Notes: generated by a model not told the origin, from the letters alone. DNA of 64,000 bases from a virus (UHGV-0072281), one strand, 5' to 3'; counted from the first letter of the stretch, positions 906 to 25,387 are shown. Program-made: numbers and translations.

Positions 906-933
906 GACTTGTTTTACCTAAAGGAGAATTAAA

Positions 934-8144: not shown

Positions 8145-8150
8145 TACTTG

Positions 8151-8188
8151 CCCCTAATCCGATTGGATTAGGGGTACTTTTATTTATT
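8151..8188 (+). terminator. rho-independent terminator (cccctaatcc gatt ggattagggg + T-rich)
   Basis: perfect 10-bp stem. Confidence 0.6.
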
Positions 8189-8207
8189 CCCCTAAAGGAG
8201 AAAAGGT

Positions 8208-8687
8208 ATGTTGAAGTTTATCTGGCGTTACCCAACCCGATTTTGGTTCGTGGTATTAGAGGTAATCACCGTTCTACTGTTAGTGACATTCGTAAACGCC
8301 CCTACGAAACAAATGGTGATTTTCTGTGTATTCGTCGCTATACCGTTGTGGGTATTTGCAAAGATTATTAAGTTTTACATGATAAGCTGGGCGAACTACA
8401 CCTGTCCATTTAAACCCAGAGAAATCATGAACTGGTTGATGTATATCGAAGACCGTTTACCCGCTCAGTCTAAAACGTTAGGCTGGCAATCGATGTTGGA
8501 TATTGCGCTAGAAACAAACGCAAAATTCCCTGGGTCAAAGAATCCTTATTTGCTGCTGGCTGTTATTGTTGCCCAGCAGAAACGTGCAGGCGAACGTTGG
8601 TTACCGAAAGAAGCGAAAGAGTATATTCGTAAACATCCGAAGGCTTTCTATTCCGTAGGTCAATGGCGTAACCTCCCACTCTTTTAA
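8208..8687 (+). CDS. membrane protein with two N-terminal TM helices (holin-like topology, unproven)
   Basis: hydrophobic segments FWFVVLEVITVLLLVTFV and MVIFCVFVAIPLWVFAKII. Confidence 0.45.
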   Translation: MLKFIWRYPTRFWFVVLEVITVLLLVTFVNAPTKQMVIFCVFVAIPLWVFAKIIKFYMISWANYTCPFKPREIMNWLMYIEDRLPAQSKTLGWQSMLDIALETNAKFPGSKNPYLLLAVIVAQQKRAGERWLPKEAKEYIRKHPKAFYSVGQWRNLPLF

Positions 8688-8740
8688 CTTTTTTACAAAA
8701 CCCTTAGTTGATTTGAATAAACCTAAAGAGGACTATTAAA

Positions 8741-9676
8741 ATGACTTTTCCATCTGAAGTAATTTACGAACTGGCTAACACACTACGTCGTCACTATAGC
8801 GCCAAGATGATGCAAACCCATGTGGGTGCGACCGCTGACTTTTTGCGCGGCCATTTCCTGGGCAATAACCCGCCATCTATTACACAGGAAACGGTTTTCT
8901 CTATCGATCGTGCCTCCTTAATTCTTCCAATCGACCACGCCATTGCGGTTCAAGAAGGGAATACGTTCAACTTCTCTATGGGAATGCGACGTTCGTCTAT
9001 CGCCGTTAACTCAAACATGGGAAATAACCAGTCTTTCGTACAGAACACGCACTCTGCAGAACACGGTAACTGGTTCGTTGTTGTAGAACAAGGCGTGAAT
9101 CAGTATGACGTTGTTGCAGCTCGCGATGAATCTTTCTTTGAGCTGGGACAGATTTCTCGCCGTCGTGAAATTGCGCTTGACCTACGTCAAGGTAATATCG
9201 GATTAAGTGGGACCAGTGTCTATTTCATCCTGAGCAGTTGGGCACATGTAAGTTATGTGCTGAAAAATGCCAGTCCGACGTTCCACGCAACGACGGTAGA
9301 ATTTCGTGGCCTTGAGATAGAATATCGTGACGAAGAAGAAACGGTACCTGGCACAGAGGTCGCCATTTGTGAAAACTACGATGATCTGAAATCTGTGCTT
9401 GTTAAGCGTGATGTTTTCGAATCGTTAAACTTGGATTTCCCCGGCGATGAAAATGAAATATCCGTAGCTGACCTGGTAGAAACATTGTGTCAGAAAGACC
9501 AAGCTAACGAAATTAGCGACGAAGAAGCAGAACTCTTCCAAGTTCAACAACTCATCAGCAAGGTTATCGGCGGTCAGGAAATTGTTGACACCCTTATGGC
9601 TTTACCACCGAAGAAACGTACTCAAAAGTACATTCGTGAACTGGTTCTTGAAAACCTGGGTCAAGCCAAAAAGTAA
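8741..9676 (+). CDS. hypothetical protein, paralog family A (long member)
   Basis: N-terminus MTFPSEVIYELANTLRRH and C-terminal SGTSVYFILSSWAHV resemble the next gene. Confidence 0.55.
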   Translation: MTFPSEVIYELANTLRRHYSAKMMQTHVGATADFLRGHFLGNNPPSITQETVFSIDRASLILPIDHAIAVQEGNTFNFSMGMRRSSIAVNSNMGNNQSFVQNTHSAEHGNWFVVVEQGVNQYDVVAARDESFFELGQISRRREIALDLRQGNIGLSGTSVYFILSSWAHVSYVLKNASPTFHATTVEFRGLEIEYRDEEETVPGTEVAICENYDDLKSVLVKRDVFESLNLDFPGDENEISVADLVETLCQKDQANEISDEEAELFQVQQLISKVIGGQEIVDTLMALPPKKRTQKYIRELVLENLGQAKK

Positions 9677-9684
9677 TTTAAATC

Positions 9685-9718
9685 CCCTACTCCCGGAGGA
9701 GTAGGGTTAATTCTTTTT
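9685..9718 (+). terminator. terminator hairpin ccctactcc-cgga-ggagtaggg + T-run
   Basis: same stem recurs at 10298 and 29620. Confidence 0.6.
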
Positions 9719-9737
9719 CCATCTTAGGAGTATTAAA

Positions 9738-10286
9738 ATGTTTCCATCATCTGAATATTTAACCCACCTGGCTTACGGTATTCGTCGAGGTTCTGTTTTC
9801 CGTACACGTTTAAAGGACGTAAATTTCCTGGCTAATTTCTTATTTAACCATTTGGGAGATGGAACTAACGTTTACAAAAAGATCACCACAACACAACTTT
9901 ATTCCCTTATAGCGGCGTCTGAAATTGTACCTACAGATATTTGGCGATTCAAGCGTTATAACGGAGATATTACGATCAGTTTTCTTGATCATTCTCCTAT
10001 TACCGTTGAAATCGTCGAACGCGTTGATATTAATAGTGAAGTGTCTGGTTGGAAGATTCTGTTTGATTGTGGCAATCGTTATGCGGTACTTGGCTCCTCT
10101 GATGAACGTGACTTCCCATTCGACAAACCCTACTACTACCTCAGCGAAGATGATTTCCCGGATAAAGAATCCAATATCTTTTTAAACGGGGATACCGTTT
10201 ACTTCATTTTTCGTACTTGGAACGATGTTGCTGCTATGATTGCTCAAGGTGTCATCGATTACCGTAAACTAGAAGTCGACATTTAA
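9738..10286 (+). CDS. hypothetical protein, paralog family A (short member)
   Basis: MFPSSEYLTHLAYGIRRG... and GDTVYFIFRTWNDV parallel the upstream gene. Confidence 0.55.
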   Translation: MFPSSEYLTHLAYGIRRGSVFRTRLKDVNFLANFLFNHLGDGTNVYKKITTTQLYSLIAASEIVPTDIWRFKRYNGDITISFLDHSPITVEIVERVDINSEVSGWKILFDCGNRYAVLGSSDERDFPFDKPYYYLSEDDFPDKESNIFLNGDTVYFIFRTWNDVAAMIAQGVIDYRKLEVDI

Positions 10287-10297
10287 AATAAAAGCTA

Positions 10298-10332
10298 CCC
10301 TACTCCTTTTCGGGAGTAGGGTAATTTCTTTT
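10298..10332. terminator. bidirectional terminator between convergent genes (ccctactcc ttttcg ggagtaggg)
   Basis: hairpin flanked by T-rich on both strands; lies between + gene end 10286 and - gene end 10331. Confidence 0.6.
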
Positions 10333-10954
10333 AGTTAACTAACCCGTTAGCTTTAAGAATCTCTAACATCTGGTTGTTTAACTCTTTTAATTTTTTGTTT
10401 TCGTTTGTCAACGAAATAACTTGTTCCGACAACGGAATAGCCTCTCGAATTTTCTTTTTCCGAGCCGCTTCCATTTGTAGGTGTTGCTCCTCCGTCACCT
10501 TCCCTTCATACTCCATGGTCGTGATTTCGACTTTCGGGTCGATACCCAACGTACGGGTGAGAATATCCGAAACGTCTTTAGTCATCACCGACACATCTAC
10601 ATAATCCGGTACAAACGATAAGTCCACCACCATCACATTACGCTGGTACGCGATTCCCGATAAACCGGGACACGATTCTACGTAAGTGTCGGGGATATAA
10701 ACGACTTGACCATCGCGTGATTTAAACGTAAGTATTGACGCGTTAACAGTGGCATCAGCAAGATATTCTTCTCGCTCCAACCCAACGGGCTTGTAATACT
10801 CGTTGTAAACATCAATATTCTGACGTACTAAATCTGGGAAGGTACGTGATGCCTCCACCGTGAAGATAACCGTTTCGGCTAACGTAAACGGTGTTTTTAC
10901 CTTAAATAAACCCGTTGTATTAACGGGAACCAAAAGAGGTAAACGCGTAGCCAT
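10331..10954 (-). CDS. hypothetical protein
   Basis: 207-aa minus-strand ORF immediately downstream of the 458-aa minus gene. Confidence 0.5.
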   Translation of the reverse strand: MATRLPLLVPVNTTGLFKVKTPFTLAETVIFTVEASRTFPDLVRQNIDVYNEYYKPVGLEREEYLADATVNASILTFKSRDGQVVYIPDTYVESCPGLSGIAYQRNVMVVDLSFVPDYVDVSVMTKDVSDILTRTLGIDPKVEITTMEYEGKVTEEQHLQMEAARKKKIREAIPLSEQVISLTNENKKLKELNNQMLEILKANGLVN

Positions 10955-10957
10955 TCA

Positions 10958-12331
10958 TTACTCCTCGTCGATTTCAGTATACCATTTCGCTTTACGAGAC
11001 AGTATGCGATATTCGACGTTATCGTATTCAAACACCCAGAAGTAGTTATCTGGATCGGCTTCATCAACGAGTTTCACGACGTCCAGACTGGTCTGATACG
11101 GATGGTATTCTTCCGCTGCTATTAACGCCTGGAAGAACAACGCTAACCACTCTGTGGTGGATTTCGACATTCGTGCAATGTCTGGGTTTGTTGTTGCAAT
11201 CAGTGCGTAGTCTGGTAACGTTTCGTGTAAGGTATTCTTACGAGTGTCGTTTTCAGGACCACTGATAACCACCATGTTCAGTGATTTATACACAGTAGGT
11301 AAATCGGTAACATCCGTTGTCGGTTTGCTTACCGTATTACTATTTCTTTCTGCAACAGACTGATCAGACCATTCCCCAAACTTTGTAATGGCTTTGACCC
11401 AGAAATCATATGGAAGGATGGGGGAATAGAGAGCCGCCACGTCTTCCTCATTCGGTATACCACGGATTTTCCACCCCGGAACCATTGTGAATTTCGTAGT
11501 GGTAAAGATCTCAGGGAATACCTTCACCCCAATCGGAACCGTAAAGCTGGAGTTTGCAAGAATATGTTCACGCAACGCTTGCTTTATTTTCGTTGGGTTT
11601 TTTCCTGCACGTCCGTAAATGATAACCGACATTGGAACAACCAGTGTTGACTCGTAGTTTTCTTGGTCATGCCAGGTGTAGTAGTTAGTTTGGATGGCAG
11701 TATACGGGAACCCTGCCATTAACTCGTTGATTTTCTTATGGTGTTCGGTAAGGTTAAACCCTTCCATCGCTTTTTCAACGACTGACTTTGTGGCCAAGAA
11801 TGTGTCGATTGGCTCAATCGGCATCTGTACTTCGATTTCAAAACCCGTGTAGTCCTGGTCGAAGTCTTCATCCGAGAACCAAACTATGATTTGGTTATCT
11901 ACATCAGTGTCATCTTGTACTTGATCTGCTGTTGCTTCATATTTCCAGCTCACCCAACGTGGGAACCAGTTACTGTTCGTCTGGATCATCGCACCGGACT
12001 GAACACCGGAAATGGTTGTTTGGAATTGGCCTAATAATAGGCGCTGGAATTCAAGTTCGTCATTTCTCAGATTCCCCAAGATGGCTTGCTGGTAAATCCA
12101 TTGAGAAACGGTTAGAATATGATCAGAAAACTCGGCTGGAACAACAACCGTCTGTTTTTCTCGTTTAGACGTAAATGTCACCAACTGCACTTGCAGATTG
12201 GATTTAGTAAACGTCTGTTTACTCTTCGCGTACGAGAGGGTCAGATCAGACAGCTCACCTACCGGAGCGGTGACGCCGTCCTGATTGTCAAACAGAGCCG
12301 GTATCTGAATAAAACCTTGTAAGTCTAACAT
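10958..12331 (-). CDS. hypothetical protein (possible virion/structural)
   Basis: start placed at internal Met (MLDLQGF, codon at 12329-12331) with GGAG RBS; track start 12391 would overlap the divergent gene. Confidence 0.5.
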   Translation of the reverse strand: MLDLQGFIQIPALFDNQDGVTAPVGELSDLTLSYAKSKQTFTKSNLQVQLVTFTSKREKQTVVVPAEFSDHILTVSQWIYQQAILGNLRNDELEFQRLLLGQFQTTISGVQSGAMIQTNSNWFPRWVSWKYEATADQVQDDTDVDNQIIVWFSDEDFDQDYTGFEIEVQMPIEPIDTFLATKSVVEKAMEGFNLTEHHKKINELMAGFPYTAIQTNYYTWHDQENYESTLVVPMSVIIYGRAGKNPTKIKQALREHILANSSFTVPIGVKVFPEIFTTTKFTMVPGWKIRGIPNEEDVAALYSPILPYDFWVKAITKFGEWSDQSVAERNSNTVSKPTTDVTDLPTVYKSLNMVVISGPENDTRKNTLHETLPDYALIATTNPDIARMSKSTTEWLALFFQALIAAEEYHPYQTSLDVVKLVDEADPDNYFWVFEYDNVEYRILSRKAKWYTEIDEE

Positions 12332-12356
12332 AATTAAAAATACTCCGAGGTGAGCA

Positions 12357-12860
12357 ATGGGTTCATTTCTTAAAGTGCTTCCGTTCTTCATTCAGATGTT
12401 GATGGAAGCATTTAAACCAGGAGAAGGAGAAAACGTATCAAGAGCAAACAAGATAATGACTTTAATCATCACGGTCTTGTTATCCTACTCGGCTTTCGTC
12501 TCCTATGCGTACGTAGTGCAGTTTCACAAGCTCGTTACAGTACAATCGCATGATCAATACATGTCGCAATCTTACCAAGAGATGAAGCAAGATCGTGACA
12601 AACTGAAAGATGATAATGGTAGATTATACGACAAGCTCTTTATTTGCCTCGGCCAGAAACCGCCATATGAAAGCGGGTACAGCTCGGTAAAAGAAGACGT
12701 CTCTGCCAAAGATTTAACACCTAAGAAACCAGAAACTCCTGTTAGCCCAGCTTCAACACCAGAACAACGCAAAGAAGCTTCGGCACGACCTGTTGGTAGT
12801 CAAGACGCTAACAGTTTCCGTCAGGAGATCATAAAGACGTTATCGTCACCTAAGGAGTAA
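12357..12860 (+). CDS. membrane protein with one TM helix, coiled-coil and Pro-rich tail (i-spanin-like architecture, speculative)
   Basis: TM IMTLIITVLLSYSAFVSYAYVV, then charged helical segment, then PKKPETPVSPASTPEQ. Confidence 0.4.
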   Translation: MGSFLKVLPFFIQMLMEAFKPGEGENVSRANKIMTLIITVLLSYSAFVSYAYVVQFHKLVTVQSHDQYMSQSYQEMKQDRDKLKDDNGRLYDKLFICLGQKPPYESGYSSVKEDVSAKDLTPKKPETPVSPASTPEQRKEASARPVGSQDANSFRQEIIKTLSSPKE

Positions 12861-12863
12861 CTG

Positions 12864-13319
12864 ATGAAATCGCTGTTATTCATCATGATTTTGTGCGTGG
12901 GTTTGGTGAGTAATAGCTATGGAGAACCCGGTAAACGGTCATCCTATACTGCGTTACAGCCTCCGCCAGCGCCACCTATCATGTTAAATTGGAAAATTGA
13001 TAAAGACGCGATGCGGGAATATGTTGCGGATGTGAATACATACGCTTATTACGTTTATCTCTACACACGAAACTTAAATCAGCAAGCAGTCAAACGCGGG
13101 TGGAATCCACCGATGTTAGCACCTATCTGCGAACGGTTTGAAATTCCTAAATTACATTCCGTTCCAGAAAAGATGCTATTAGACGAGAAAGCGTTAACGC
13201 CACAAGAAATCAGTCGGGATTTATCACGTAAACTGAATTCGTTGTTGTGGAATTATCGCTCTGACCGGCAAGCTTTATTAGACGCCTACGATCAGTATCT
13301 GACAACGTGTTTGAACTGA
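12864..13319 (+). CDS. secreted/periplasmic protein
   Basis: signal-peptide-like MKSLLFIMILCVGLVSNSYG; no canonical lipobox. Confidence 0.45.
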   Translation: MKSLLFIMILCVGLVSNSYGEPGKRSSYTALQPPPAPPIMLNWKIDKDAMREYVADVNTYAYYVYLYTRNLNQQAVKRGWNPPMLAPICERFEIPKLHSVPEKMLLDEKALTPQEISRDLSRKLNSLLWNYRSDRQALLDAYDQYLTTCLN

Positions 13320-13324
13320 CAACG

Positions 13325-13368
13325 CCTCCTGTATCCTTCGGGGTACAGGAGGTATTTTCTTTTTAACG
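13325..13368 (+). terminator. rho-independent terminator (cctcctgtatcc ttcg gggtacaggagg + T-run)
   Basis: 12-bp stem with one mismatch, then ATTTTCTTTTT. Confidence 0.6.
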
Positions 13369-13406
13369 TTTAACCCCCTTCTAATGTATAGAGAAAGGAG
13401 CTTAAC

Positions 13407-14141
13407 ATGACATACCCGAAAACGATTCAACCCACCTTACCGACGCTGGTAATTGGTGCTGACGCAGAAACCAAATCACTGCGTCCTGATGCGTATTTGT
13501 TAACCACAGGCTTAGTTGCCTTTGACGTACCGACTTTAAAAATGGTAGGGTCGTCGTATATGCGTATTGATCCTAACGACCCTAAAGCAAAAGCTGTGTT
13601 CCACGAAGACCCGCAAACCGTGGGGTGGTGGGAAGGTAAAGGAGAACCTGAATACGCACCGTCTCGTGAAGCCTACACGGAAGCATGGGGTGGTACAACT
13701 CCTATGCCGGAAGCGCTGTGGGCAATGCGGAAGTGGTTAGACGAAATCACCGGCAAACACAATTTCGTTATTACCATGCGTGGGCCAGATTTCGATTCTC
13801 CAATTTTCATGAACGCGTTCGCACAATGTGACGTCCCTCCAGGTAAGTTCCGTAAGTTTAGTGCGTTAGACAGCGACCGCACCGCAGAGCGTTTAGCGCT
13901 GGCGTTTGGTTTTGAGCCTGACTTGACCGTTGAGCAAGTTTACTGGACGCGGGGTAAACCGGCATTTGAACACCATGCTTTGTGGGACGCTGCGAAAGAA
14001 GCGTACACCACCGCACGTATTTATCACCTTGCACTGATTACCCGCGAGTATGGGTACGAACGTGCTAAAGCCTGTCACGAAGAACTGAAAACCGGTGAGT
14101 ATATTCCACCACAGATTCGTGATCAGTTAACCAGGGATTAA
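13407..14141 (+). CDS. DnaQ-like DEDDh 3'-5' exonuclease
   Basis: Exo I-like LVIGADAET, Exo II-like GPDFDSPIF, Exo III HHALWDA (H-x-A-x-x-D). Confidence 0.55.
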   Translation: MTYPKTIQPTLPTLVIGADAETKSLRPDAYLLTTGLVAFDVPTLKMVGSSYMRIDPNDPKAKAVFHEDPQTVGWWEGKGEPEYAPSREAYTEAWGGTTPMPEALWAMRKWLDEITGKHNFVITMRGPDFDSPIFMNAFAQCDVPPGKFRKFSALDSDRTAERLALAFGFEPDLTVEQVYWTRGKPAFEHHALWDAAKEAYTTARIYHLALITREYGYERAKACHEELKTGEYIPPQIRDQLTRD

Positions 14142-14143
14142 GA

Positions 14144-15655
14144 ATGAAGAACGTTGATGTTGCTGTACTTTATACCGACGGTAGCCATTTAACCTCACCG
14201 ATGGGAACAGGCGGTGGGATTCACGGCTACCTGTTTAACAAGGAAGAGATTGTTGACGGTGGCGTTTATCGCCACCCTACCATTCCCGAAGGGATTACGA
14301 CCTCTGGTTATCGTCAGATTAACAAAGAGGAAAAACTTCCTGCGTTACCAGACTCCGTTGAGTTTGTGGACTGCGTTATTCCAGTACCGAAACACCACCA
14401 CTCCGATGTTGCAGAGATTGTTGCTTTTTTAACCGTTTTCGAAAAAGCACCATTCGTTGCAAAAAACTACGTTATCTATATCGACGCGTCTTACGTTGTG
14501 AATACGTTTAACGATTGGATTGACGGTTGGGCTAAGCGGGACTGGCGACGGGCTGATGGAACCCCTATCGCGAACCTTGAGCTGGTTCAACGGATGTGGG
14601 AAATTAAGAAACGTCTGAAGAGAGAAGGGAAAGGGATTCGTGTTCTTAAAATCAAAGGACACTCTGGTCACTACGGTAACGAACGAGCTGACGGGCTGGC
14701 ACGAAAAGGATCATCCATCTCTGCGCACGGAGAAGGTTTAGATTATCAGGCGTACTGGTCAGCAGATGAAATCCCGGAAGAACAGCAGGAAGAAATCGTC
14801 AGTGAAGGCGTTAACGTTGCCGCGTTTCCTGATATTTGCGTAACTAAGTTCTGTTACCCGATGGTAAATGAGCAGCACCCTACAGTTAAAGTAAACGGTG
14901 AAAATCTCTATTACATGTTCGGGGGTAACCACGCAAAACAGAAGGACGATATTGTCTTCGTTGGGAAATACATTCCTGATGCGCAGTTTTGTGTGATGTT
15001 TACACGTGAGCCGTGGACGAACGTTTACGATTTGGTTAACACCCACGCTGCTAAAGCCTGGGAGGGCGTACCACGTTTGCGTCAGTTTGACCCTATCGCT
15101 GTTGTGTTCAACCTGTTCGTAAAACGTAAGAAGTTTGCGGAAGCAGCGGCTAACGGTATCCCGGTTGACAAAATGCACTTTAGCGAAGACAAAAACCTGT
15201 GGATGTACGAAGACTTGTCTATCAGTCGTATTCTGCGTCCCGCGTTATTGTCATACCGCTGCGTAACCATTCGTGATGAACTGGCAGAGTGGCTGCGTGA
15301 CTGTTTGGAAGGCAAATCGAACGTTGTCTTAAATGACATTACCGATTTGCTTTATGACGAAAAAGGTAAACCCACCAAAGACTTTTACCGAAACGTGGAT
15401 AAAGGGTTTGACGTTTCCATTAAAATTCCTAACGGGAAGGTTGACGTTAAAACTATTCTGACGCGTGCTATCGACATACCGACACGTACGGAAATCAACC
15501 GTATTAAAGAACCAAACGGGCGATTCTACATTGCTGTACGTCGTCCAGAACGTCAGTATATTGAATACGCGTTAGTGTATATCGGTGAGAAGTATCATGG
15601 TCTGTGGTGTGGTTATTATTCAAACAAACGAATATTGACCGATAAGGAACTTTGA
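14144..15655 (+). CDS. RNase HI-like domain (N-terminal ~190 aa) fused to ~300-aa domain of unknown function
   Basis: LYTDGS (Asp), AEIVAF (Glu), IDASYVV (Asp), KGHSGHYGNERADGLA matches RNase HI KGHAGHPENERCDELA. Confidence 0.65.
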   Translation: MKNVDVAVLYTDGSHLTSPMGTGGGIHGYLFNKEEIVDGGVYRHPTIPEGITTSGYRQINKEEKLPALPDSVEFVDCVIPVPKHHHSDVAEIVAFLTVFEKAPFVAKNYVIYIDASYVVNTFNDWIDGWAKRDWRRADGTPIANLELVQRMWEIKKRLKREGKGIRVLKIKGHSGHYGNERADGLARKGSSISAHGEGLDYQAYWSADEIPEEQQEEIVSEGVNVAAFPDICVTKFCYPMVNEQHPTVKVNGENLYYMFGGNHAKQKDDIVFVGKYIPDAQFCVMFTREPWTNVYDLVNTHAAKAWEGVPRLRQFDPIAVVFNLFVKRKKFAEAAANGIPVDKMHFSEDKNLWMYEDLSISRILRPALLSYRCVTIRDELAEWLRDCLEGKSNVVLNDITDLLYDEKGKPTKDFYRNVDKGFDVSIKIPNGKVDVKTILTRAIDIPTRTEINRIKEPNGRFYIAVRRPERQYIEYALVYIGEKYHGLWCGYYSNKRILTDKEL

Positions 15656-16323
15656 TGCTGATTGTTTTTAGTCAAGCGTTATCGATGGCACCGAGTTATA
15701 TCCAGATACGCTTTTCAGCAATTGCGCGTCAGCAGTGGGGCTTTAAAGCCCCCTATTCTGACGATCACTATACACTCGGTGAAGTAGCACTTGAACTTGC
15801 TTTACGTTCATTGTGGGAAATCATTGCATTATACAATGCAGGTTGTGATATACCGAAAGATTGTTTCCCACAGCGGGTGATTGCACAAAGCACTACGAAC
15901 ACTTACGGTAATCCGGCATTGGTAGAAGAGTGCTTAGGCTACGCTAACCAATCCGGGGAACTGCAACACAACTTTAATCTGGTGATTAACAAAGTCTGGA
16001 GTGAGTTGGAAAGCTACCCTGAAAAGATTATCTGGTTTGATCGTAACCAATTCGTTAAGGAGGCGGCCAGTAAACGACCCGTACGTTTAGTTGCCTTAAA
16101 GCCCACCGACCTTGATTTGAAACAAACGTATCCCTTCCCGGAAGAAATTCGACTTTCTCCAGAAACCGTAGGACACACTATTTTCAAACAAGGTGACGCC
16201 TGGATACTTCCTCACGATCTAGACCGTTTCCTGCTCAACTCCGATCAGATTCACTCCGGCTATGATTCTCTCGTGAAAGAGTTTCACATCGATCCCTATT
16301 TCGCTAAAAATTTTCTTAGATAG
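15652..16323 (+). CDS. hypothetical protein
   Basis: 223-aa ORF, coupled overlap with upstream gene. Confidence 0.5.
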   Translation: MMLIVFSQALSMAPSYIQIRFSAIARQQWGFKAPYSDDHYTLGEVALELALRSLWEIIALYNAGCDIPKDCFPQRVIAQSTTNTYGNPALVEECLGYANQSGELQHNFNLVINKVWSELESYPEKIIWFDRNQFVKEAASKRPVRLVALKPTDLDLKQTYPFPEEIRLSPETVGHTIFKQGDAWILPHDLDRFLLNSDQIHSGYDSLVKEFHIDPYFAKNFLR

Positions 16324-16330
16324 ATATTAT
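16321..16330 (+). promoter_or_regulatory. recurring motif TAGATATTAT (copy 2)
   Basis: overlaps stop codon of upstream gene, about 30 bp before next ATG. Confidence 0.2.
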
Positions 16331-16360
16331 TCAGGTGTAGAACCCTCGGAGTTAATCACC

Positions 16361-17098
16361 ATGTTGAAAGTTTATGTCCCTCAATTACAACGTATTAATC
16401 CCTCGTTGTTCGAGGGATTCTTTTATAAATTTTGGCCACAATACTTCAATGAACATTTGAAGGACCCGAGGTGGTCAACCGCACAAGGAGAATTCTTTTA
16501 TACCGCACAGACTGCCTGCACAAACGTCTTTACTCGTCTCATCGCTGAGGTTATTGACGCTGTCAACACCAACCGAAACTTTGACCTTCGTGACGTCGTA
16601 ATAGATCTCTCAGCGATCTTCGATAACTACGATTGCGATGACGCAGTATTCGAACATTTCTCCTCTGAAGATGTGTGGGAGGCCGTTTATCAATGGCTAG
16701 AATACTACGTGAATTTTCTACTTTCCTCGAACATGTTAGAAAATTACAATAAAGCACTCTTTCCCATTTATAACGACTTAGTGAACGTTAAACTGACAAA
16801 GAATCTCGTTGGTTTTTGGTATTCGACCTACGACGCTGAAAGCAGATTGTGGGAAAAAGAAATGATCGCTTACGGCATCGAGCGCGGCGATTATGATGAA
16901 TTATATCGATGTTATTGGCCGTTCAATCATTACGAAAAAGGGTGTCAAGGCGATCCGTATTTGTGGTCTTTTTATTTCTGTAATCAGACTGGTGTTATTT
17001 ATCTTGAAGACACCGGTGTACGAATCCCTAACGGTACTGATGTAACATACTGCCAATTACGTAAAGACCGGGCTGACGCCATTTATCAGGATTATTAA
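16361..17098 (+). CDS. hypothetical protein
   Basis: 245-aa ORF. Confidence 0.5.
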   Translation: MLKVYVPQLQRINPSLFEGFFYKFWPQYFNEHLKDPRWSTAQGEFFYTAQTACTNVFTRLIAEVIDAVNTNRNFDLRDVVIDLSAIFDNYDCDDAVFEHFSSEDVWEAVYQWLEYYVNFLLSSNMLENYNKALFPIYNDLVNVKLTKNLVGFWYSTYDAESRLWEKEMIAYGIERGDYDELYRCYWPFNHYEKGCQGDPYLWSFYFCNQTGVIYLEDTGVRIPNGTDVTYCQLRKDRADAIYQDY

Positions 17099-17099
17099 C

Positions 17100-17642
17100 A
17101 TGAAATTACTTATCGATTTTTCCCTGAGTTTGTCACGCGACAGGCTAAATAAAATACTTACTGAAATGCGAAGTAAAGTGACGTTAGAATTGCACGATGC
17201 GATAGCGGTATACGAGAGAAAGCTAACGAAAGAGAACAACGGGGAGACCGTGGTGATCTTAGACGCTAAAGCGATGGTGGATTTTCTGGTGGACGTTTTA
17301 GAAAGGCGGATACACGCAGTGATAGAACGACCCTACCTGGTTCGTGTAACCGACCCAGACACTACGGTAGATTCGATACTGGAAAAAGCATTCGTTGACG
17401 CAGCACACTATTTACAAAATCATTCCCCGGACGATTTCGAAACGATTTACGTTGGTGTTATACAGCAACAGAATGCTGAAACCAATATAGTCGATACTGT
17501 GTGTTGGAGCGATATTCTTACTAATGAAACCATGTCTCGCATTCGAGATATCTTTATTGAAAATTTGGCATTAGTAAAAAGGGTGTGTAGTTCCGAGATT
17601 ATTTATTTATCATCGAAATACGAAAAATCTAAAGGAGTATAA
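17100..17642 (+). CDS. hypothetical protein
   Basis: 180-aa ORF. Confidence 0.5.
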   Translation: MKLLIDFSLSLSRDRLNKILTEMRSKVTLELHDAIAVYERKLTKENNGETVVILDAKAMVDFLVDVLERRIHAVIERPYLVRVTDPDTTVDSILEKAFVDAAHYLQNHSPDDFETIYVGVIQQQNAETNIVDTVCWSDILTNETMSRIRDIFIENLALVKRVCSSEIIYLSSKYEKSKGV

Positions 17643-17644
17643 TC

Positions 17645-18169
17645 GTGGATATTTTAATTCAACTTCGTAAGAAAACAACCGTCGTTACACCGATTGGGTT
17701 AGAGGAGAAAATCTCTGGCGCGGTTGCACGCAAGCTCTGTGGTGCTCACGGCTTTAGCAGTCATCAGGAACAGGTCGTTACTGCCGCCACATTACACAAC
17801 TTACGACACACAGTACATTACTGTCTAGTTGACAATGTTACTATCACTATTGATGGCGACGCAACTGCTGACCAACTGCGTCGTGAAATTGACCACAAAA
17901 TCGGCGTTTATAAAAGACGTTTCGATCGCGCCTGCGCACGTTTAACTGACGACGAAGCACTATGGAAACGTTTGAAACTTGAAATTGAGTACGCGGCACA
18001 ACGTTACGGGATTGGCGGTACCGAACCGTTGCTGACTGAACAAGAAATCATGTTAGCAATTGAAGTTTACATCACCGTTTGTCTCGCTATCCTGAAAGAG
18101 ACCAACTACGAAATTACAAAAGCGTTGTTAAACACCGCAGATGGACTATCCCCAATTTTAGGACAGTAA
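17645..18169 (+). CDS. hypothetical protein (GTG start)
   Basis: 174-aa ORF with AAGGAG RBS. Confidence 0.5.
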   Translation: MDILIQLRKKTTVVTPIGLEEKISGAVARKLCGAHGFSSHQEQVVTAATLHNLRHTVHYCLVDNVTITIDGDATADQLRREIDHKIGVYKRRFDRACARLTDDEALWKRLKLEIEYAAQRYGIGGTEPLLTEQEIMLAIEVYITVCLAILKETNYEITKALLNTADGLSPILGQ

Positions 18170-18170
18170 A

Positions 18171-18656
18171 ATGAACGTAAACGCAATCATTAATCTTTCT
18201 AATAGCGATATTATCCACGAGTTTCTAAACCACTGCGATCGGACGGAACAATCTATCCGTAACATGTTGGCACCGAAAACTGTGGATGCTATCTGGATGG
18301 CTTCGCAAGTAGCGAGTGTTGTTGCGGGCAGATATCGCGTATCCTTAGTGATGTGTCTGGACAATTTCTTCAACCAACCGGGACGTATTACCCAGACAGG
18401 TATCGGTAGAAGACTTTATGATGTTCGCATCGGAGCTTTCCATTCGATGATCACCGACTGGCACAACGGATACATGCCTGGTGCAATTATACCGTATACC
18501 GAACCAGAATGGCGTCGCTTTTATAGCCAAATCTTGGGTAATGAAAGCACGATTCATGAGATGATGACTATTATCAGTGCTGACCAAAGCCAACTTGCAT
18601 ACCAGCTATGGGAGTGGCTAAAAGCTAATTATCCTGATTACGTCAAAATCGACTAA
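18171..18656 (+). CDS. hypothetical protein
   Basis: 161-aa ORF; terminator follows. Confidence 0.5.
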   Translation: MNVNAIINLSNSDIIHEFLNHCDRTEQSIRNMLAPKTVDAIWMASQVASVVAGRYRVSLVMCLDNFFNQPGRITQTGIGRRLYDVRIGAFHSMITDWHNGYMPGAIIPYTEPEWRRFYSQILGNESTIHEMMTIISADQSQLAYQLWEWLKANYPDYVKID

Positions 18657-18662
18657 TACACA

Positions 18663-18694
18663 CCCTAGCTTCGGCTAGGGTTACTTTATATTTA
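18663..18694 (+). terminator. rho-independent terminator (ccctagc ttcg gctaggg + T-rich)
   Basis: 7-bp stem, TTCG loop. Confidence 0.55.
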
Positions 18695-18715
18695 ACCATT
18701 TTAGGAGAATATACC

Positions 18716-19648
18716 ATGTATTTGTACAAAAGTAAAAAAGTAAAAGGTATTAAAGACTGCCTTAGACAAATGGGGAGTCAGCATCTAGAAAATGTCATGG
18801 AAGAAAATCAAACAAAAGAAAATCCTGTCTCGAAATGGATAAAAAAGAATCGTAATCATCTAACCAATAGCTTTATACCGTATAATGAAGATTTAGGTCT
18901 CAAAGATCCACGTTCCCTTCACGCTCAAACATTGGCAATTGGATGGCTATACGGTGGTTCTTCCTTAATATCCGATCGAGCACTTAGAGAACTTGTTTTT
19001 GAGACTGAGATGCCCAGTAAATTCCCTGAAGAGTGGTTAGACTTTATACCTACTTGGACTGTAGCAATCGATGTAGGTAAAGAAGATGAGACTTTCTTTC
19101 TCGGCTATCGAAAAAATGGGAAGAGAAGGTTTATTATAATTGCTACAAATACTGATTACGGGTTAACAGAAGGCGTTACCACGATTGCCACTTGTTCGTT
19201 AGAGCTTCGTAGTGCAGGAAACGGACTTGTGGAAATCGACTATGCCGACGGTGTGGAGAACGAACAAGAAAAGATGCTATGGTTATCTCTGGCCAAAGCC
19301 GCCACATCGATGATATTTCTGTGCACCCTAATCCCACCTAATCTCAAAGCGTCTTACAATGACGTTAAGTTCAAAGAAATCAAAAAGAACGGCAGTATTA
19401 GCTACGAAGTCAAACCACGTGAACGTGATGTTAAAGTGGATATCACACCAGGACAAGTAAAATATCTGAAAGGATTCAACACCGACTTGAAAGCCATGCA
19501 AGGTATCAAACACGCTAAAGCTGCGCACATTCGTCGTGCCCACTGGCGTAGATACTGGGTTGGCCCAAGAAACGGTGAAAGAAAAAGAAAACTTTGCTGG
19601 ATTCCACCGACATTTGTTCGCGGCTACGTACCCCACACGCAAGACTAG
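18716..19648 (+). CDS. hypothetical protein, paralog family B, conserved basic C-terminal HIRRAHWRR motif
   Basis: C-terminus KAAHIRRAHWRRYWVGP...W.PP.F; internal LGWLYGG..ISD segment shared with next gene. Confidence 0.55.
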   Translation: MYLYKSKKVKGIKDCLRQMGSQHLENVMEENQTKENPVSKWIKKNRNHLTNSFIPYNEDLGLKDPRSLHAQTLAIGWLYGGSSLISDRALRELVFETEMPSKFPEEWLDFIPTWTVAIDVGKEDETFFLGYRKNGKRRFIIIATNTDYGLTEGVTTIATCSLELRSAGNGLVEIDYADGVENEQEKMLWLSLAKAATSMIFLCTLIPPNLKASYNDVKFKEIKKNGSISYEVKPRERDVKVDITPGQVKYLKGFNTDLKAMQGIKHAKAAHIRRAHWRRYWVGPRNGERKRKLCWIPPTFVRGYVPHTQD

Positions 19649-19658
19649 GAGAATTATA

Positions 19659-20543
19659 ATGTTAAGACGCAGAATTTATGGAGACACGCTTCGACGTATT
19701 AGTGAAGCTATAGAGACTGCACACAAAGACTTGTTTGGTCTGAAAGAAGATCGTTTTCTAACGTTTGTCAGGGAACACAAGAGGCAACTTCCCGTAACCT
19801 TTCTGCCCGTTAACGACCCAACGTACCGTGTGTTCGGCACCACCAAACAGGTGCCGTATTCTATCCGTCAATCGTTAGGTTTGGGCTGGCAATACGCAGG
19901 TATTGAAATTATCTCTGATAACGAGTTGATGGCGTTACTTGCAGACACTGAACGTTTAACGGATATTCCGTACGCGTGGATTGAAGCCATCCCTTCGTTC
20001 ACCTTTTCCGTGACTGTCAAGATTAACGAACTTCCTGCTACACTCTTTATCGGTCGTCGTAAATTCGAAGGTGAAGAAGTATTGTTCGTTTTACGATGGG
20101 TGGAGATAAATCAGCGGCACTGTTGGACAACCAAGATTTATCGGTTCAACAGAAAGGCAGATGACTTTGTTAGTTTAGAGCCTTACTTTGCTAACGAGTC
20201 AAAGGACGAGGAACTTCTGGATGAGGTACATATCGGTTTATATCTTTCCTCGCGGGTGAAGAAATCAGAACGCGAGCGACGGGAATACCGTGGTAGAACG
20301 ACACGTTACGTACCTGATACAGAAATCCTTCCACGCAGAGAACCTGTCGTTGTTGACGTAAGTCCAGTACAACGCGAAGACTTAGAGAAACAACGCAGGG
20401 AAGGCAGGAGAATCTGTTTAACGCCGCATCGCGCAGCACACATACGCAGGGCACATTGGAAACGGGTCTGGTGTGGGCCAATGACAGGCCCACGCTGGCA
20501 GGAGTGGCGATGGATTGCACCCGCCTTTATTTCCGGATTTTAG
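19659..20543 (+). CDS. hypothetical protein, paralog family B
   Basis: C-terminus RAAHIRRAHWKRVWCGP...W.AP.F; start moved to internal ATG 19659 with AGGAG RBS (track start 19536 overlaps upstream gene). Confidence 0.55.
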   Translation: MLRRRIYGDTLRRISEAIETAHKDLFGLKEDRFLTFVREHKRQLPVTFLPVNDPTYRVFGTTKQVPYSIRQSLGLGWQYAGIEIISDNELMALLADTERLTDIPYAWIEAIPSFTFSVTVKINELPATLFIGRRKFEGEEVLFVLRWVEINQRHCWTTKIYRFNRKADDFVSLEPYFANESKDEELLDEVHIGLYLSSRVKKSERERREYRGRTTRYVPDTEILPRREPVVVDVSPVQREDLEKQRREGRRICLTPHRAAHIRRAHWKRVWCGPMTGPRWQEWRWIAPAFISGF

Positions 20544-20560
20544 CGTGAAAATAAAGATTA

Positions 20561-20607
20561 CCCCTAGACCTTGTGGTCTAGGGGTAGCTTTTACTTTTTA
20601 TTTTTTG
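20561..20607. terminator. bidirectional terminator (cccctagacc ttgt ggtctagggg + T-run) between convergent genes
   Basis: perfect 10-bp stem; T-run overlaps stop of minus gene. Confidence 0.6.
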
Positions 20608-21353
20608 TTTGCCTTCAGAGCTTTCAGGCGTTCAGCCGTCACGTTCAGACATTCAATCAATTCGTTCACCTGTTTCATGAACAAACCAAACAGTTCAACC
20701 CAATCGGATGCAAAGTCTAACATCGCTGTCAGTTCTTTTGCCACGTTAGGATGAATGTTTTGTTCAGACAGAATCGTTGCAGAGGCTTTAATAGACTCGA
20801 TGGATTTGTCGATGTTCGTACGAAGTTTCTTCGTGATTTCAACGTTCAGTGCTTTTGCGCGGTTAAACGCAATATCGATCTCCGTAGCACTGTGGTACGT
20901 TTTCTCAATCGGGCGCTGGTCAATAACGTTGTTGGTGTAAGACTTAGCCAACTGGTTAACCAGGTCTTTCGGATTCACGTTACGTAACGGAATGTTAACG
21001 TTTTTATAACGGAAACCGATAGGTAATGACAGTACGCCCACATCATGTGTAAGGGCGGAAAGTTGCAACTCAACAGGTAAAAGGACACCGTCGTAGATCT
21101 TCTGTAGGGAACTCCACACCGATTCTAAGCGGTTAATGTGATCCATTACATAGGTATTGAAGCCTGGCGGTACAATAACCAACATGCCTGCAAAGTGTAA
21201 GAATTTTTCCTGTTGCATCCACTTGGAAACGTCTGACATGTCGTCGTAAGTGGTTAATGCAATCTCTTGTTGAGGGCCACTGAACCCTTTGGGTAAGATT
21301 GCAGACGCTTTAGCGGCAAAGCTAGTTAACGCTGCAAGTGGATTTACGTTCAT
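20598..21353 (-). CDS. hypothetical protein
   Basis: 251-aa minus-strand ORF, divergent from the recombinase operon. Confidence 0.5.
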   Translation of the reverse strand: MNVNPLAALTSFAAKASAILPKGFSGPQQEIALTTYDDMSDVSKWMQQEKFLHFAGMLVIVPPGFNTYVMDHINRLESVWSSLQKIYDGVLLPVELQLSALTHDVGVLSLPIGFRYKNVNIPLRNVNPKDLVNQLAKSYTNNVIDQRPIEKTYHSATEIDIAFNRAKALNVEITKKLRTNIDKSIESIKASATILSEQNIHPNVAKELTAMLDFASDWVELFGLFMKQVNELIECLNVTAERLKALKANKK

Positions 21354-21450
21354 TTAAAACCTCGGATTATAAGTCAGGGTTACATAGTAAAGTCTTTTTA
21401 CAGTTCATCCTGAACTTATGACCGAGATTATCTCACAAAGGTAAAGCTCG

Positions 21451-21750
21451 ATGAAAATCAAATTACTGACTCGAAACACCACGCCTCGTCTGGAACCGGA
21501 AATCTATCTTACCCCGGTGAAAAAAGACAAAGAAGGTAAGCCTATTCAAGTAGGTAAGATTCTTAGCGTGACCTCTTTACCTAACGGTAAGCGCGTGATG
21601 GAATTAGAAATCGACGAGCGCAACAAACGTCGTTTCGAGTCTATTGAGAACCCCTATCCTGAAAAATCGGAAGAAGTCACCGAGTGGGCAGAGACCTACT
21701 TTGAATTCTGGCACAAACGTCGCCTTCTTCTTCCGACCAAGAATCGTTAA
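21451..21750 (+). CDS. hypothetical small protein
   Basis: 99-aa ORF preceding the recombinase. Confidence 0.45.
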   Translation: MKIKLLTRNTTPRLEPEIYLTPVKKDKEGKPIQVGKILSVTSLPNGKRVMELEIDERNKRRFESIENPYPEKSEEVTEWAETYFEFWHKRRLLLPTKNR

Positions 21751-21765
21751 TTATTGGAGCGCTAA

Positions 21766-23262
21766 ATGGCAGGCCCAACTAAGCAAGTTATCGGTGAAGT
21801 AATTCGTCCTCGTTTTAACGTTTATACCATCATGGACCACGCCTTAGGCAACTACGAAAGAGGCGAAGATGGTTTATACTACCTTAACGGTGGTTTTGCC
21901 CACATCATGGGTTTCGCGGGTCGTGGTAACACCTTCAAATCCACACTGTTGGATTTCTGTATCTTCCAAATCCTGCAACGCTATAAAGCAGAGTGGGGTT
22001 CGAAATACGATACCGAAGTGTCTGCTGCCCTCGATCGCTTAGAGACCGGTTATATTTCTGCCATGCACGCCAACGGTATTGACGATGGAACTTCGGTACT
22101 GGAACTTATTCACGAAGGTCGTTATAACCTCGTTGGTTCTGACGTGATGCCCGGGGAACAGTATTACAGTGACTATATTCGTGATGAAGTGGAAAAACGC
22201 TTCAAGCAGTATATGTCTGGTAAAACGCGTGTAACGCCGTTCCTTGACCCGGTTCGTCGTAAGCAAAAAGAAATCCTTGACCCGTGGCTGTATTCTATCG
22301 ACTCCCTGTCGGAGTGGCACTCGTCTTCTCTGGAAGACAAGCACGCTAAAACGGATATCGGTGATTCCGATCAGAACATCCTCAACGCCCACGACGCCTT
22401 ACAGAAATCGAACATGATGAGCCGTTGGCCGTCTGCGTTTGCCCGTGGTGGTTTCTACATGGGCTTTGTTGCACAGATGGCCGATGACTCCGGTAAGGCG
22501 ATGGCGGGCGGTCGTCAAGGGCAGAAAGCAAACGCGAAACTGCTGGACGATGCGAACGACGATCTCAAATTCGCAGGGATTCCTCGTCGTCAGTTAAGCT
22601 TCCTGACTAACTCGTTTATTGTTGCGACAAAATCAGGCGAGCTGAAAAAAGACCAGAGTTATAACGCCCAGACCGGTGTTAACGAAGAACTTTACCCAAC
22701 CGCACGTTCAAAAGCCATGAACGCATCGGTTAACGACCTGAAAGTTATCACCTTTACGCAGTACCGTGCTAAAGGTGGACACACGGGTGTGAAGTTCCAG
22801 ATGATCTTCTCGCAAGAGATGGGTCTACTGTACCACCTGAGCCTGTGGCATTACCTGAGTGACACTCTGAAAAAATCCGAATTTGGATTTACATCCAGCG
22901 GTAGCGGTGGTTCCATTAAAGAACTCCAGATTCTTCCTGGAGTTAAATTCCAGCGTACGACGATTCGCGACATGATCGACGATAACCCGAAACTGCGTCG
23001 GGCGTTAGAAATCACGGCCGCGATTGCGTACATGCAGAACAACTACCATCGTTTAGAGGTTAAATACCACCTCACGATGGAAGAAATCTACAAACTCATT
23101 GATGAAAAATGGGATTGGAATGAGATTCTGGAGAACACCGTAGAATACTGGATGTTTAAAGACCAAGAAACGAAAGGTGGTAAACGCACGTTAACTGCCC
23201 GTACGATTCTGGGTATGGTCGTGGACGGCCTGGAACCGAAGTTCCTCACCAAAAAGAAATAA
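21766..23262 (+). CDS. UvsX/RecA-like recombinase (divergent)
   Basis: unusual P-loop FAGRGNTFKS parallels T4 UvsX AGPSKSFKS (recalled); Walker-B-like LYSIDSLS; DIGDSD and AMAGGRQ parallel RecA EIGDSHMG and UvsX MGGGTG. Confidence 0.6.
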   Translation: MAGPTKQVIGEVIRPRFNVYTIMDHALGNYERGEDGLYYLNGGFAHIMGFAGRGNTFKSTLLDFCIFQILQRYKAEWGSKYDTEVSAALDRLETGYISAMHANGIDDGTSVLELIHEGRYNLVGSDVMPGEQYYSDYIRDEVEKRFKQYMSGKTRVTPFLDPVRRKQKEILDPWLYSIDSLSEWHSSSLEDKHAKTDIGDSDQNILNAHDALQKSNMMSRWPSAFARGGFYMGFVAQMADDSGKAMAGGRQGQKANAKLLDDANDDLKFAGIPRRQLSFLTNSFIVATKSGELKKDQSYNAQTGVNEELYPTARSKAMNASVNDLKVITFTQYRAKGGHTGVKFQMIFSQEMGLLYHLSLWHYLSDTLKKSEFGFTSSGSGGSIKELQILPGVKFQRTTIRDMIDDNPKLRRALEITAAIAYMQNNYHRLEVKYHLTMEEIYKLIDEKWDWNEILENTVEYWMFKDQETKGGKRTLTARTILGMVVDGLEPKFLTKKK

Positions 23263-23270
23263 AAGCGTTA

Positions 23271-23291
23271 GGGTAGGGGATTACCCTACCC
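23271..23291 (+). other. intergenic stem-loop (gggtaggg gatta ccctaccc) without U-tract, directly before RBS
   Basis: read from sequence; may be processing/stability element or weak terminator. Confidence 0.3.
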
Positions 23292-23307
23292 TAGCTAAGG
23301 AGTCGTT

Positions 23308-23607
23308 ATGCGTTATCAAACGGAGATTGTGGAGCGCTTAAGCGAAGGTTTAGCCAGCGTCAGTCTGGAAACAGCAGCGGCATTTCGTGAGACTTTCGCT
23401 ACTTTCTTTCCCGATCGTGAATCTTTTTGTTTAAAGGTCGGTGAATATTATTCCAAGTTACTCGAACACTACGGTTACCCGCCGGTGAAATTCGACGTAC
23501 CTGAAAACACCGACGACATCAGTTATTGGATTGAAACCCTCGAAGCAGGGACACTTTCCAACTTGCGTAAGGCGGTAGAAAATGAAACTCGATCCAGCGC
23601 GGCGTAA
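23308..23607 (+). CDS. hypothetical small protein
   Basis: 99-aa ORF with AAGGAG RBS. Confidence 0.5.
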   Translation: MRYQTEIVERLSEGLASVSLETAAAFRETFATFFPDRESFCLKVGEYYSKLLEHYGYPPVKFDVPENTDDISYWIETLEAGTLSNLRKAVENETRSSAA

Positions 23608-24250
23608 AAAAGCAGAAGCTTACGCCTTACAAATCTTAAACCTGGTTGACCCCTCTGGGATTAACGCAGAGGCAGCAAAGAAAGCTTTTGCTCGAATGAC
23701 AGACGAACAGTTTAATCGTCTTCGTGAAGGGCTACCGATTTACAACCCGGTTGGCAGTAAAGTTAAAATAGACCACATGCGAAACGTTGAGCTATGTCGC
23801 GTTTTAGGTCTGAACCTGGAACAGCGGTTGTGGTTAACTGAGCCGAAAACGGGTGTTTTCCATCGTACCCGCTACCCACATCTGGTATTGCGCTTGCCTG
23901 CGCGTCGACAAACGCAGATGCAAGAAAAGAAAATGGCAGTAGCGAAGAACGACAAAGTTCGTGATAAACTCTCCGGTCAGGTTGTGGGTCCTTCTAAAGC
24001 ATCAGGTGTATCTTTCCCAGAAGCGTACATCATGTACTCGGATGGCCACGACTGGACACTGAAAGAGTTTCTGTGGGCGCGTGGGGGTAACGAAGCGTTA
24101 CAACGTGCGTTCTATCAATCGTTACGTCAAACCGGTAAGGGACGTATTGACCTACCAGGGGCAGAACGTACCAGTTCAAAAGCAACACGTACCTGGTCTG
24201 CGTATCTGAAAGCGATGCACATTGGTAACAACATAGGCCATCCGTCATGA
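23582..24250 (+). CDS. hypothetical protein
   Basis: 222-aa ORF, overlaps upstream by 26 nt. Confidence 0.45.
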   Translation: MKLDPARRKKAEAYALQILNLVDPSGINAEAAKKAFARMTDEQFNRLREGLPIYNPVGSKVKIDHMRNVELCRVLGLNLEQRLWLTEPKTGVFHRTRYPHLVLRLPARRQTQMQEKKMAVAKNDKVRDKLSGQVVGPSKASGVSFPEAYIMYSDGHDWTLKEFLWARGGNEALQRAFYQSLRQTGKGRIDLPGAERTSSKATRTWSAYLKAMHIGNNIGHPS

Positions 24251-24969: not shown

Positions 24970-25387
24970 TGGACTTCACGTCAATTTGTTCGCCAACCGG
25001 AGCCAACTCCCCTTCCGAGATTTCTACGTTAGGAATGTCTGGAAGGGTGGGTTGGTAACCATTATTTTCATCAGGTTCTTCGTCGTGACGTTTTATTTTC
25101 ACGTTACCGCGTTGCATCAGAATTGTATTCAGTGCGTTAGCCAAGTCTTGGTTCGCCTCACTGTTTTTCTGGGCAGCGGCAACACGTCGTTTAGAAATGA
25201 TCTGCTTATCTAGGTCGTTTAATAACGTCCCGATACGATCCACGGTCTTTAAGTCTTTGTGAGCATTAGGATCGTCTAAGATTAGATTGACAATTCTGAC
25301 ACGGGCTTGTTGCGTTTGGCGGAGAAGCGATTCTTCGTCGTCTACTTCACCATCTAACGCCTGGTATTTCACTTCTTCTTCAGCCAT
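24923..25387 (-). CDS. acidic hypothetical protein
   Basis: 154-aa ORF with strong GAGGTGG RBS on minus strand; 3' end overlaps convergent + gene by about 47 nt. Confidence 0.45.
   Translation of the reverse strand: MAEEEVKYQALDGEVDDEESLLRQTQQARVRIVNLILDDPNAHKDLKTVDRIGTLLNDLDKQIISKRRVAAAQKNSEANQDLANALNTILMQRGNVKIKRHDEEPDENNGYQPTLPDIPNVEISEGELAPVGEQIDVKSIMTAAFARPSSDEPD

Follow-up and report, generated by a model that had tools for sequence, protein, structure and literature searches.

Genomic context

The boundary between the open reading frame at 15652-16323 and the + strand gene at 16361-17098, which encodes a product of unknown function (phrog_8219), carries the 13-mer AGATAGATATTAT at positions 16318-16330. 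The 13-mer forms the core of an element that extends over 16306-16339 on the + strand and includes a tract of five A residues at 16306-16310. The predicted initiating G of the element, at 16337, precedes the ATG at 16361 by 24 nt, and the gene that follows would be the first of an early operon headed by this site (site 2 below). The core is an exact match (13/13) to the consensus of the corresponding sites in a complete relative, Salmonella phage SPN3US, and the whole element scores 25.7 bits against a matrix built from those sites.

Site 2 is part of a stretch of 64,000 nucleotides, which was analysed as a whole and is referred to here as the window. The window phage is uncultivated and of metagenomic origin, and the window is 100% identical to the IMG/VR contig IMGVR_UViG_3300014543_000002 (107 kb). 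Megablast detected only short stretches of 70-82% identity, in the Erwinia phages phiEaH2, Stratton and Asesino and in SPN3US-like Salmonella phages. At the protein level, a local tblastn search with 72 ORFs places the whole window in collinearity with the 166.7-230.1 kb region of SPN3US, at 25-89% identity. Of the five subunits that make up the virion RNA polymerase (vRNAP), four have homologues encoded in the window, all on the + strand: beta C-terminal (SPN3US gp218) at 23582-24250, with 85% identity to SPN3US 189763-190425; beta' N-terminal (gp240) at 45368-46993, with 86% identity to SPN3US 212357-213967; beta N-terminal (gp241) at 46997-51163, with 77% identity to SPN3US 213989-218188; and beta' C-terminal (gp244) at 52973-53707, with 86% identity to SPN3US 220017-220742. 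The second of these genes corresponds to phrog_2986, RNA polymerase beta subunit (E=7e-235), and the third to phrog_3148 (E=0), likewise an RNA polymerase beta family. The subunit assignments, including gp240 and gp241, with gp218 as vRNAP beta-C and gp244 as vRNAP beta'-C, follow the published account of SPN3US; the virion location of the enzyme was demonstrated in SPN3US itself (PMC5105663). The collinearity with SPN3US and the four vRNAP subunit homologues identify the window phage as a phiKZ-related jumbo phage of the SPN3US type. The window contains no tRNAs and has no match to Rfam.

The repeated element and its four sites

An earlier note on this DNA had singled out a recurring motif with the core AGATATTAT near gene starts. 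The copies it listed are all present on the + strand, TAGATATTAT at 6849-6858 and 16321-16330 and CAGATATTAT at 25421-25430, and both copies of TAGATATTAT do overlap a TAG stop codon, at 6849-6851 for ORF 6327-6851 and at 16321-16323 for ORF 15652-16323. The pattern YAGATATTAT is matched three times in the window, where 0.17 +/- 0.43 matches are expected, and a count of three was not attained in any of 100 dinucleotide-preserving shuffles. The recurring AGATATTAT motif is real. The seven-base core ATATTAY alone is not enriched in the window (14 found, 13.95 expected), and neither are the variants of AGATATTAT with one mismatch (17 found, 11.6 expected); the specificity must therefore sit in a longer element.

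The extent of this element was read from the intergenic regions and the aligned contexts of the sites, which share the 13-mer as their unit. In full, the element is about 35 bp long and runs from an A-tract through TTTC and AGATAGATATTAT to a G that follows after six further bases. Counting from the predicted start places an invariant A, part of an A-rich tract, near -29; TTTC falls at about -23 to -20, AGATAG at -19 to -14 and ATATTAT at -13 to -7, and six weakly constrained bases then lead to the predicted initiating G. The window holds four copies, with cores at 6846, 16318, 25418 and 56210, all on the + strand and all at gene boundaries. Their starts, predicted from the register of the element to be at 6865, 16337, 25437 and 56229, are located 23-87 nt upstream of + strand genes. 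A scan allowing up to two mismatches returned only these four sites in the window. All four lie at gene boundaries, and the motif is thus not equally frequent inside coding regions, the outcome that the earlier note had named as evidence against a promoter. Sites 2-4 are intergenic save for the TAG overlap of site 2, and site 1 spans the final six bases of ORF 6327-6851.

The sites differ in their surroundings. Site 1 (6834-6867, + strand; core AAATAGATATTAT at 6846-6858; predicted initiating G at 6865; 23.6 bits) overlaps the TAG stop of the upstream frame and precedes a transglycosylase-like gene, which starts at 6952 or 6925 and matches phrog_4067 transglycosylase. Upstream of its core, CCAAACCTTTTT takes the place of the A5 tract and T-rich stretch of sites 2-4. 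Site 3 (25406-25439, + strand; core AGACAGATATTAT at 25418-25430; 37.4 bits) is found in a 72-bp divergent gap between a - strand gene (24923-25387) and a + strand gene (25460-26008), and its predicted initiating G at 25437 is 23 nt before the ATG at 25460. From this position in a divergent gap, the + strand transcript of the downstream genes is expected to start there. Site 4 (56198-56250, + strand; core AGATATATATTAC at 56210-56222) has its predicted initiating G at 56229, which precedes the ATG at 56283 by 54 nt; a predicted 5'-terminal RNA hairpin follows at 56230-56250, with a minimum free energy (MFE) of -7.4 kcal/mol. Just ahead of site 4, an intrinsic-terminator-like hairpin and T-run on the + strand (56149-56187), with a 13-bp stem containing seven GC pairs and followed by TACCTATTTT, closes the upstream operon.

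The related AT-rich variants that had been noted before 56283 and before 21451 fared differently. The former corresponds to site 4, which has the top matrix score of the window (40.7 bits). The latter was not supported: the interval 21354-21450 contains no match of at least 8 bits to the SPN3US-trained matrix, and no site was found at the orthologous position in SPN3US (scan with up to two mismatches) or in phiEaH2 (matrix scan, at least 13 bits). This interval is a 97-bp divergent gap between a - strand gene and a + strand gene in which no shared motif was identified. Since it is devoid of an early-type motif, promoters of another class, middle or late, would be expected there.

The arrangement of the sites bears on whether the motif might act in RNA, as an AU-rich processing or cleavage site or in the translational coupling of adjacent genes. 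A role of this kind would suit a motif found between co-oriented genes, and sites 1 and 2 indeed overlap the upstream stop with no terminator in between. However, site 3 and the SPN3US copies at 7390, 15614, 28969 and 191602 occupy divergent gaps; there the preceding gene is encoded on the opposite strand, and no + strand RNA from an upstream + strand gene would reach the motif. Strong terminators immediately precede site 4 and several of the SPN3US copies, and the conserved element begins well ahead of any conserved RNA structure. An RNA-level role is the least probable of the alternatives we weighed. The motif is directional and located at gene boundaries, always facing the downstream gene, and at site 4 it is placed just after a strong terminator.

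Conservation in related jumbo phages

In SPN3US, an unbiased k-mer scan identifies ATAGATATTAT as the most over-represented 11-mer, with 9 copies found against 0.06 expected, an enrichment that ranks beside those of ribosome-binding-site and terminator-stem words. Matches with up to two mismatches number 31 in this genome, and 23 + strand sites were curated from them. By the RefSeq annotation, 22 of the 23 are intergenic and every one faces a + strand gene, with a median of 54 nt between the predicted start and the start codon. In the information profile of these sites, an invariant A precedes the 13-mer by ten bases and TTTC adjoins it on the upstream side; the 13-mer itself has 1.1-2.0 bits per position and is followed by CT and, seven bases after the core, by a G with 1.8 bits. 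The single clearly intragenic site among the 23, at 25226 of NC_027402.1, is an exact 13/13 copy with 6N-G inside the gene 23886-25493, about 280 nt before the next gene, and is possibly an internal promoter.

A matrix trained on the 23 SPN3US sites only finds exactly four matches in the window, scoring 23.6-40.7 bits, against 9.6 bits for the next best match and a maximum of 12.6 bits across 30 random sequences. Applied to the collinear 72 kb of phiEaH2, the same matrix gives exactly four + strand matches, one for each site of the window. The G is the seventh base after the core in 22 of 23 SPN3US sites, 4 of 4 window sites and 4 of 4 phiEaH2 sites (30 of 31 in total).

The orthologues of site 1 are found at SPN3US 174954 and phiEaH2 98729, both of which likewise overlap the stop of the upstream gene; those of site 2 at SPN3US 184044 and phiEaH2 107609; those of site 3 at SPN3US 191602 and phiEaH2 116304, both of which have C at position 4 as in the window; and those of site 4 at SPN3US 223277 and phiEaH2 148034, with further copies kept in the IMG/VR relatives L137 and L138. 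The variants that distinguish individual sites recur in SPN3US: A at position 2 (site 1), C at position 4 (site 3) and the TATATTAC form (site 4). The predicted signal is shared site for site by Seoulvirus and Erskinevirus, and the site-2 orthologue is present in Machinavirus as well. One annotated feature of phiEaH2 (NC_019929.1) crosses this pattern: the coding sequence of gp142 at 115984-116877 (L142 27985-28878) runs across the site-3 orthologue at 116304 and covers the region where the window and SPN3US carry the divergent - strand gene. It is probably a mis-called ORF.

Alignment of site 2 across eight phages (the window, four IMG/VR relatives, phiEaH2, SPN3US and Huxley) contains 11 consecutive invariant columns, ATAGATATTAT at 16320-16330, as its only long invariant run. 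The G at 16337 is also invariant, and the mean column identity of the alignment is 64%. The protein encoded downstream of site 2 is only 29-40% identical in the GenBank relatives; the product of 16361-17098 shares 32% identity with its SPN3US orthologue, yet the predicted promoter core ATAGATATTAT is identical. The genes that directly follow the four sites belong to the less conserved genes of the window, with 32-52% protein identity to SPN3US. A related-locus search with the genes downstream of sites 1, 3 and 4 recovered the parent contig and, besides it, no more than one or two close relatives (77-99% identity). The conservation of sites 1 and 2 is partly confounded, as both overlap the end of the upstream coding sequence; the upstream gene has no terminator in either case, and read-through could also supply transcripts of the genes that follow. 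An exact-pattern scan of IMG/VR with AGATAGATATTATNNNNNNG gave, among the matches listed, mostly single and apparently chance occurrences in unrelated contigs.

The SPN3US consensus AGATAGATATTATCT contains an imperfect inverted repeat, AGATA-N5-TATCT, such as might be expected of an operator for a phage DNA-binding regulator, a repressor or activator, overlapping other promoters rather than of a polymerase element. The repeat produces weak reverse-strand matches at SPN3US 15632 and 191620. Its right arm, the CT after the core, is not kept in the window, where the four sites read TC, TT, TT and CA at this position, and the palindrome is therefore not the feature that is conserved. The sites of all three phages, 4 in the window, 23 curated in SPN3US and 4 in phiEaH2, are uniformly on the + strand, and the few reverse-strand matches represent weaker overlaps or fall within coding sequence. 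The fixed spacing to a conserved G is more in keeping with a start signal that has a direction than with a symmetric operator, and the gaps of sites 2 and 3 (37 and 72 bp) hold no other conserved promoter-like element. We consider regulation through an operator extremely improbable.

The genes that follow the element in SPN3US agree with its proposed action as a promoter for the first genes. The motif heads the operons of gp22-gp23, gp34-gp35 and gp76-gp77, which hold all four assigned genes of the non-virion RNA polymerase (RNAP), with exact or near-exact copies at 15614 and 15707 (gp22-gp23), at 28969, 45 nt before gp34, and at 72486 and 72684 (gp76-gp77). The non-virion subunits gp35 and gp77 are named in PMC5105663 and were matched by gene order; gp34 and gp23 are, by elimination, the remaining non-virion 'RNA polymerase beta subunit' genes. 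Because the later enzyme must be expressed from early promoters, a motif with this function is predicted to head the non-virion RNAP operons, as is found here. These operons are outside the window, and the comparison accordingly rests on SPN3US. By the RefSeq annotation, no virion structural gene is directly downstream of the motif among the SPN3US sites, and no such site is directly upstream of the vRNAP genes of that phage. The genes faced by the four window sites are likewise not annotated as structural in SPN3US.

The two phages also differ in their complement of sites. SPN3US carries a promoter-like AGACAGATGTTAT at 167506, in the gap orthologous to window 856-933. One early promoter is thus not common to both phages, since this gap in the window has a terminator hairpin only.

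Comparison with known promoters

A close counterpart of the element is the early promoter consensus of Bacillus phage AR9, AAATATATATTAT-(6N)-G+1, which was first recognised as an over-represented motif, then mapped by dRNA-seq and primer extension, and assigned to vRNAP (PMC5312081). It too is a 13-mer, of the same length and in the same register, identical to AGATAGATATTAT at 11 of 13 positions and followed by the same 6-nt spacer and initiating G; two positions of the upstream half have G here in place of A or T. AR9 differs in its uracil-containing genome, its Gram-positive host, the absence of a phage nucleus and a copy number of about 41. According to the AR9 authors, transcription in phiKZ and phiR1-37 also starts 6 nt after the element (PMC5312081).

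Pseudomonas phage phiKZ belongs to the same lineage and possesses split beta/beta' virion and non-virion RNAPs. Its early element is AT-rich and highly conserved, has its centre near -10 and is preceded by an A/T-rich tract; the element described here shares this description, its register being counted from the predicted start. Sites were derived directly from the first 50 kb of the phiKZ genome, where TATATTAC-(6N)-G occurs at seven intergenic positions that have A-tracts upstream. One of these precedes PHIKZ054, a gene for which Wicke et al. report an early-promoter motif at the primary start site (PMC8244752). The class 2 site at 56210 (site 4) has the identical TATATTAC core. Copy numbers are similar, 28-32 in phiKZ against about 23 in SPN3US. 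The upstream half of the phiKZ element reads aaacag/aagat, in contrast to AGATAG here, and T is the last base of the dominant core here (ATATTAT). Mapping of the phiKZ promoters relied on dRNA-seq, primer extension and cappable-seq, whereas the window sites are predictions.

The late promoters of phiKZ (TATG) and AR9 (AACA-6N-TA/G) are phage-polymerase promoters of the same group as well, read by the non-virion RNAP. These motifs are very short, low in information and not findable bioinformatically (PMC7598289). The element described here, by contrast, is long and information-rich and heads the genes of the non-virion RNAP; on account of the latter, it must act before that enzyme exists.

The AT-rich part of the element also resembles the -10 hexamer of bacterial promoters, TATAAT, and the sites might be read as host sigma-70 promoters, either -10 or extended -10 in type, that serve the bacterial RNA polymerase. 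With respect to the conserved G, the presumed start, TATTAT occupies -12 to -7 and matches TATAAT at 5 of 6 positions in sites 1-3, the corresponding TATTAC of site 4 at 4 of 6, and this AT-rich segment is presumably melted in both systems. The class 1 sites have a G at -14, which is half of the TGn extended -10 motif. On these features some use of the sites by host RNAP is conceivable. The absence of a good -35 element, pointed out in the earlier note, was borne out: a weak sigma-70 match, TTTTCA-17-TATTAT (9/12), is present at 25421 in site 3, and the other three sites (1, 2 and 4) have no callable -35. The class 2 sites do not have the G at -14. Moreover, the element carries information at positions that sigma-70 does not read, namely AGATAG at -19 to -14, the invariant A near -29 and the G at +1. 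Elements of the same layout in AR9 and phiKZ are transcribed independently of host RNAP (PMC7598289, PMC5312081), and jumbo-phage vRNAP has no known sigma homologue (PMC13282480). Sigma-70-like matches are rarer in the window than in shuffled sequence, 24 against 32.2 +/- 5.6 at 6001-26000 and 15 against 22.0 +/- 4.9 at 45001-64000, which suggests that they are not selected for in the window. We regard recognition by the host polymerase as very improbable.

As a separate observation, the depletion of sigma-70-like matches in these two regions is what a phage with no reliance on host RNAP might show.

Classes of sites, leaders and terminators

The sites can be sorted into two sequence classes, class 1 with AGATAGATATTAT and class 2 with AGATATATATTAC-TTAGGT-G. 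Class 2 sites were recognised at 56229-56262 in the window, at 56294, 65413, 94239, 113986, 165687 and 223277 in SPN3US, and at 148034 in phiEaH2. All seven of the class 2 sites that were folded form a hairpin from +1 or +2, with stem sequences that differ between sites. The mean MFE of the first 26 nt is -7.1 kcal/mol for class 2 against -2.9 kcal/mol for class 1, and the z scores of class 2 range from -2.2 to -6.5. The class 2 sites of SPN3US further share a conserved AATCGACTATTA box near +22, just before the ribosome-binding site. That the early promoters of SPN3US-like phages form two functionally distinct classes is a tentative proposal, which we think unlikely on balance. If it were true, class 2 could mark messages that are immediate-early, specially stabilised or specially routed, and its hairpin could protect from 5'-end-dependent decay or serve as a tag that is recognised when messages leave the early infection vesicle. 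Another possibility under the same proposal is that a different virion-packaged specificity factor serves each class.

The leader that follows site 1 (6865-6951, 87 nt) is itself conserved in SPN3US and phiEaH2, across three genera, as GGGCAC..ACAAAGGAG..GTCCGCGCCGT, and continues with a hairpin that displays compensatory changes, beyond which AAGTATAAATCC precedes the start of the transglycosylase gene. This region may be a structured leader with a regulatory role, or it may act as a second promoter, one belonging to a later class.

The intrinsic terminators of the window share stem sequences, CCCTACTCC/GGAGTAGGG and TACCTACCTCC/GGAGGTAGGTA, and several of them are bidirectional. Shared-stem terminators are found at 9685-9706, 10296-10323, about 29625-29655, about 35325-35350 and 59032-59058, and their stems constitute the most over-represented 9- to 11-mers in the window.

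Proposed function and implications

The AGATATTAT motif is most likely a start signal used by the injected RNA polymerase of the phage for its first genes. The earlier note had favoured a phage-RNAP promoter or start-site motif over recognition by host sigma-70, and all of the computational evidence, from the vRNAP subunit homologues, context and direction to conservation and the layout shared with AR9 and phiKZ, sides with that choice. With high confidence, though from sequence comparison, we take the motif to be the core of predicted early promoters of an SPN3US-like jumbo phage, read by its own multisubunit vRNAP. Where and when transcription begins at these sites, and which polymerase carries it out, are inferred.

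Under this proposal, the co-injected vRNAP would bind the element after DNA ejection, melt the AT-rich -10-like segment and start at the G seven bases past the last T. Initiation would require neither host RNAP nor new protein synthesis. Rightward operons of fast-evolving early genes would then be transcribed up to hairpin terminators; in the relatives, such early operons include the genes of the non-virion RNAP, whose product would take over later transcription.

Promoters of this kind are already known from related giant phages, and the window sites add predicted members. According to a review, the early operons of every jumbo phage that encodes RNAP are preceded by such an AT-rich motif, with its centre near -10 (PMC7598289). 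In the promoter literature on SPN3US and phiEaH2 we found no published consensus for the clade, and the papers searched contain no measured start site, timing or polymerase dependence for any SPN3US-like phage; a full-text search for the string AGATATTAT returned unrelated papers only.

The finding fits the current picture of jumbo-phage transcription and leaves that picture unchanged. For an uncultivated jumbo phage of the SPN3US type, it supplies a precise consensus, predicted starts and the positions of four predicted promoters. The sites offer ready templates for vRNAP biochemistry, and the consensus lets the early operons in this clade be delimited from sequence alone.
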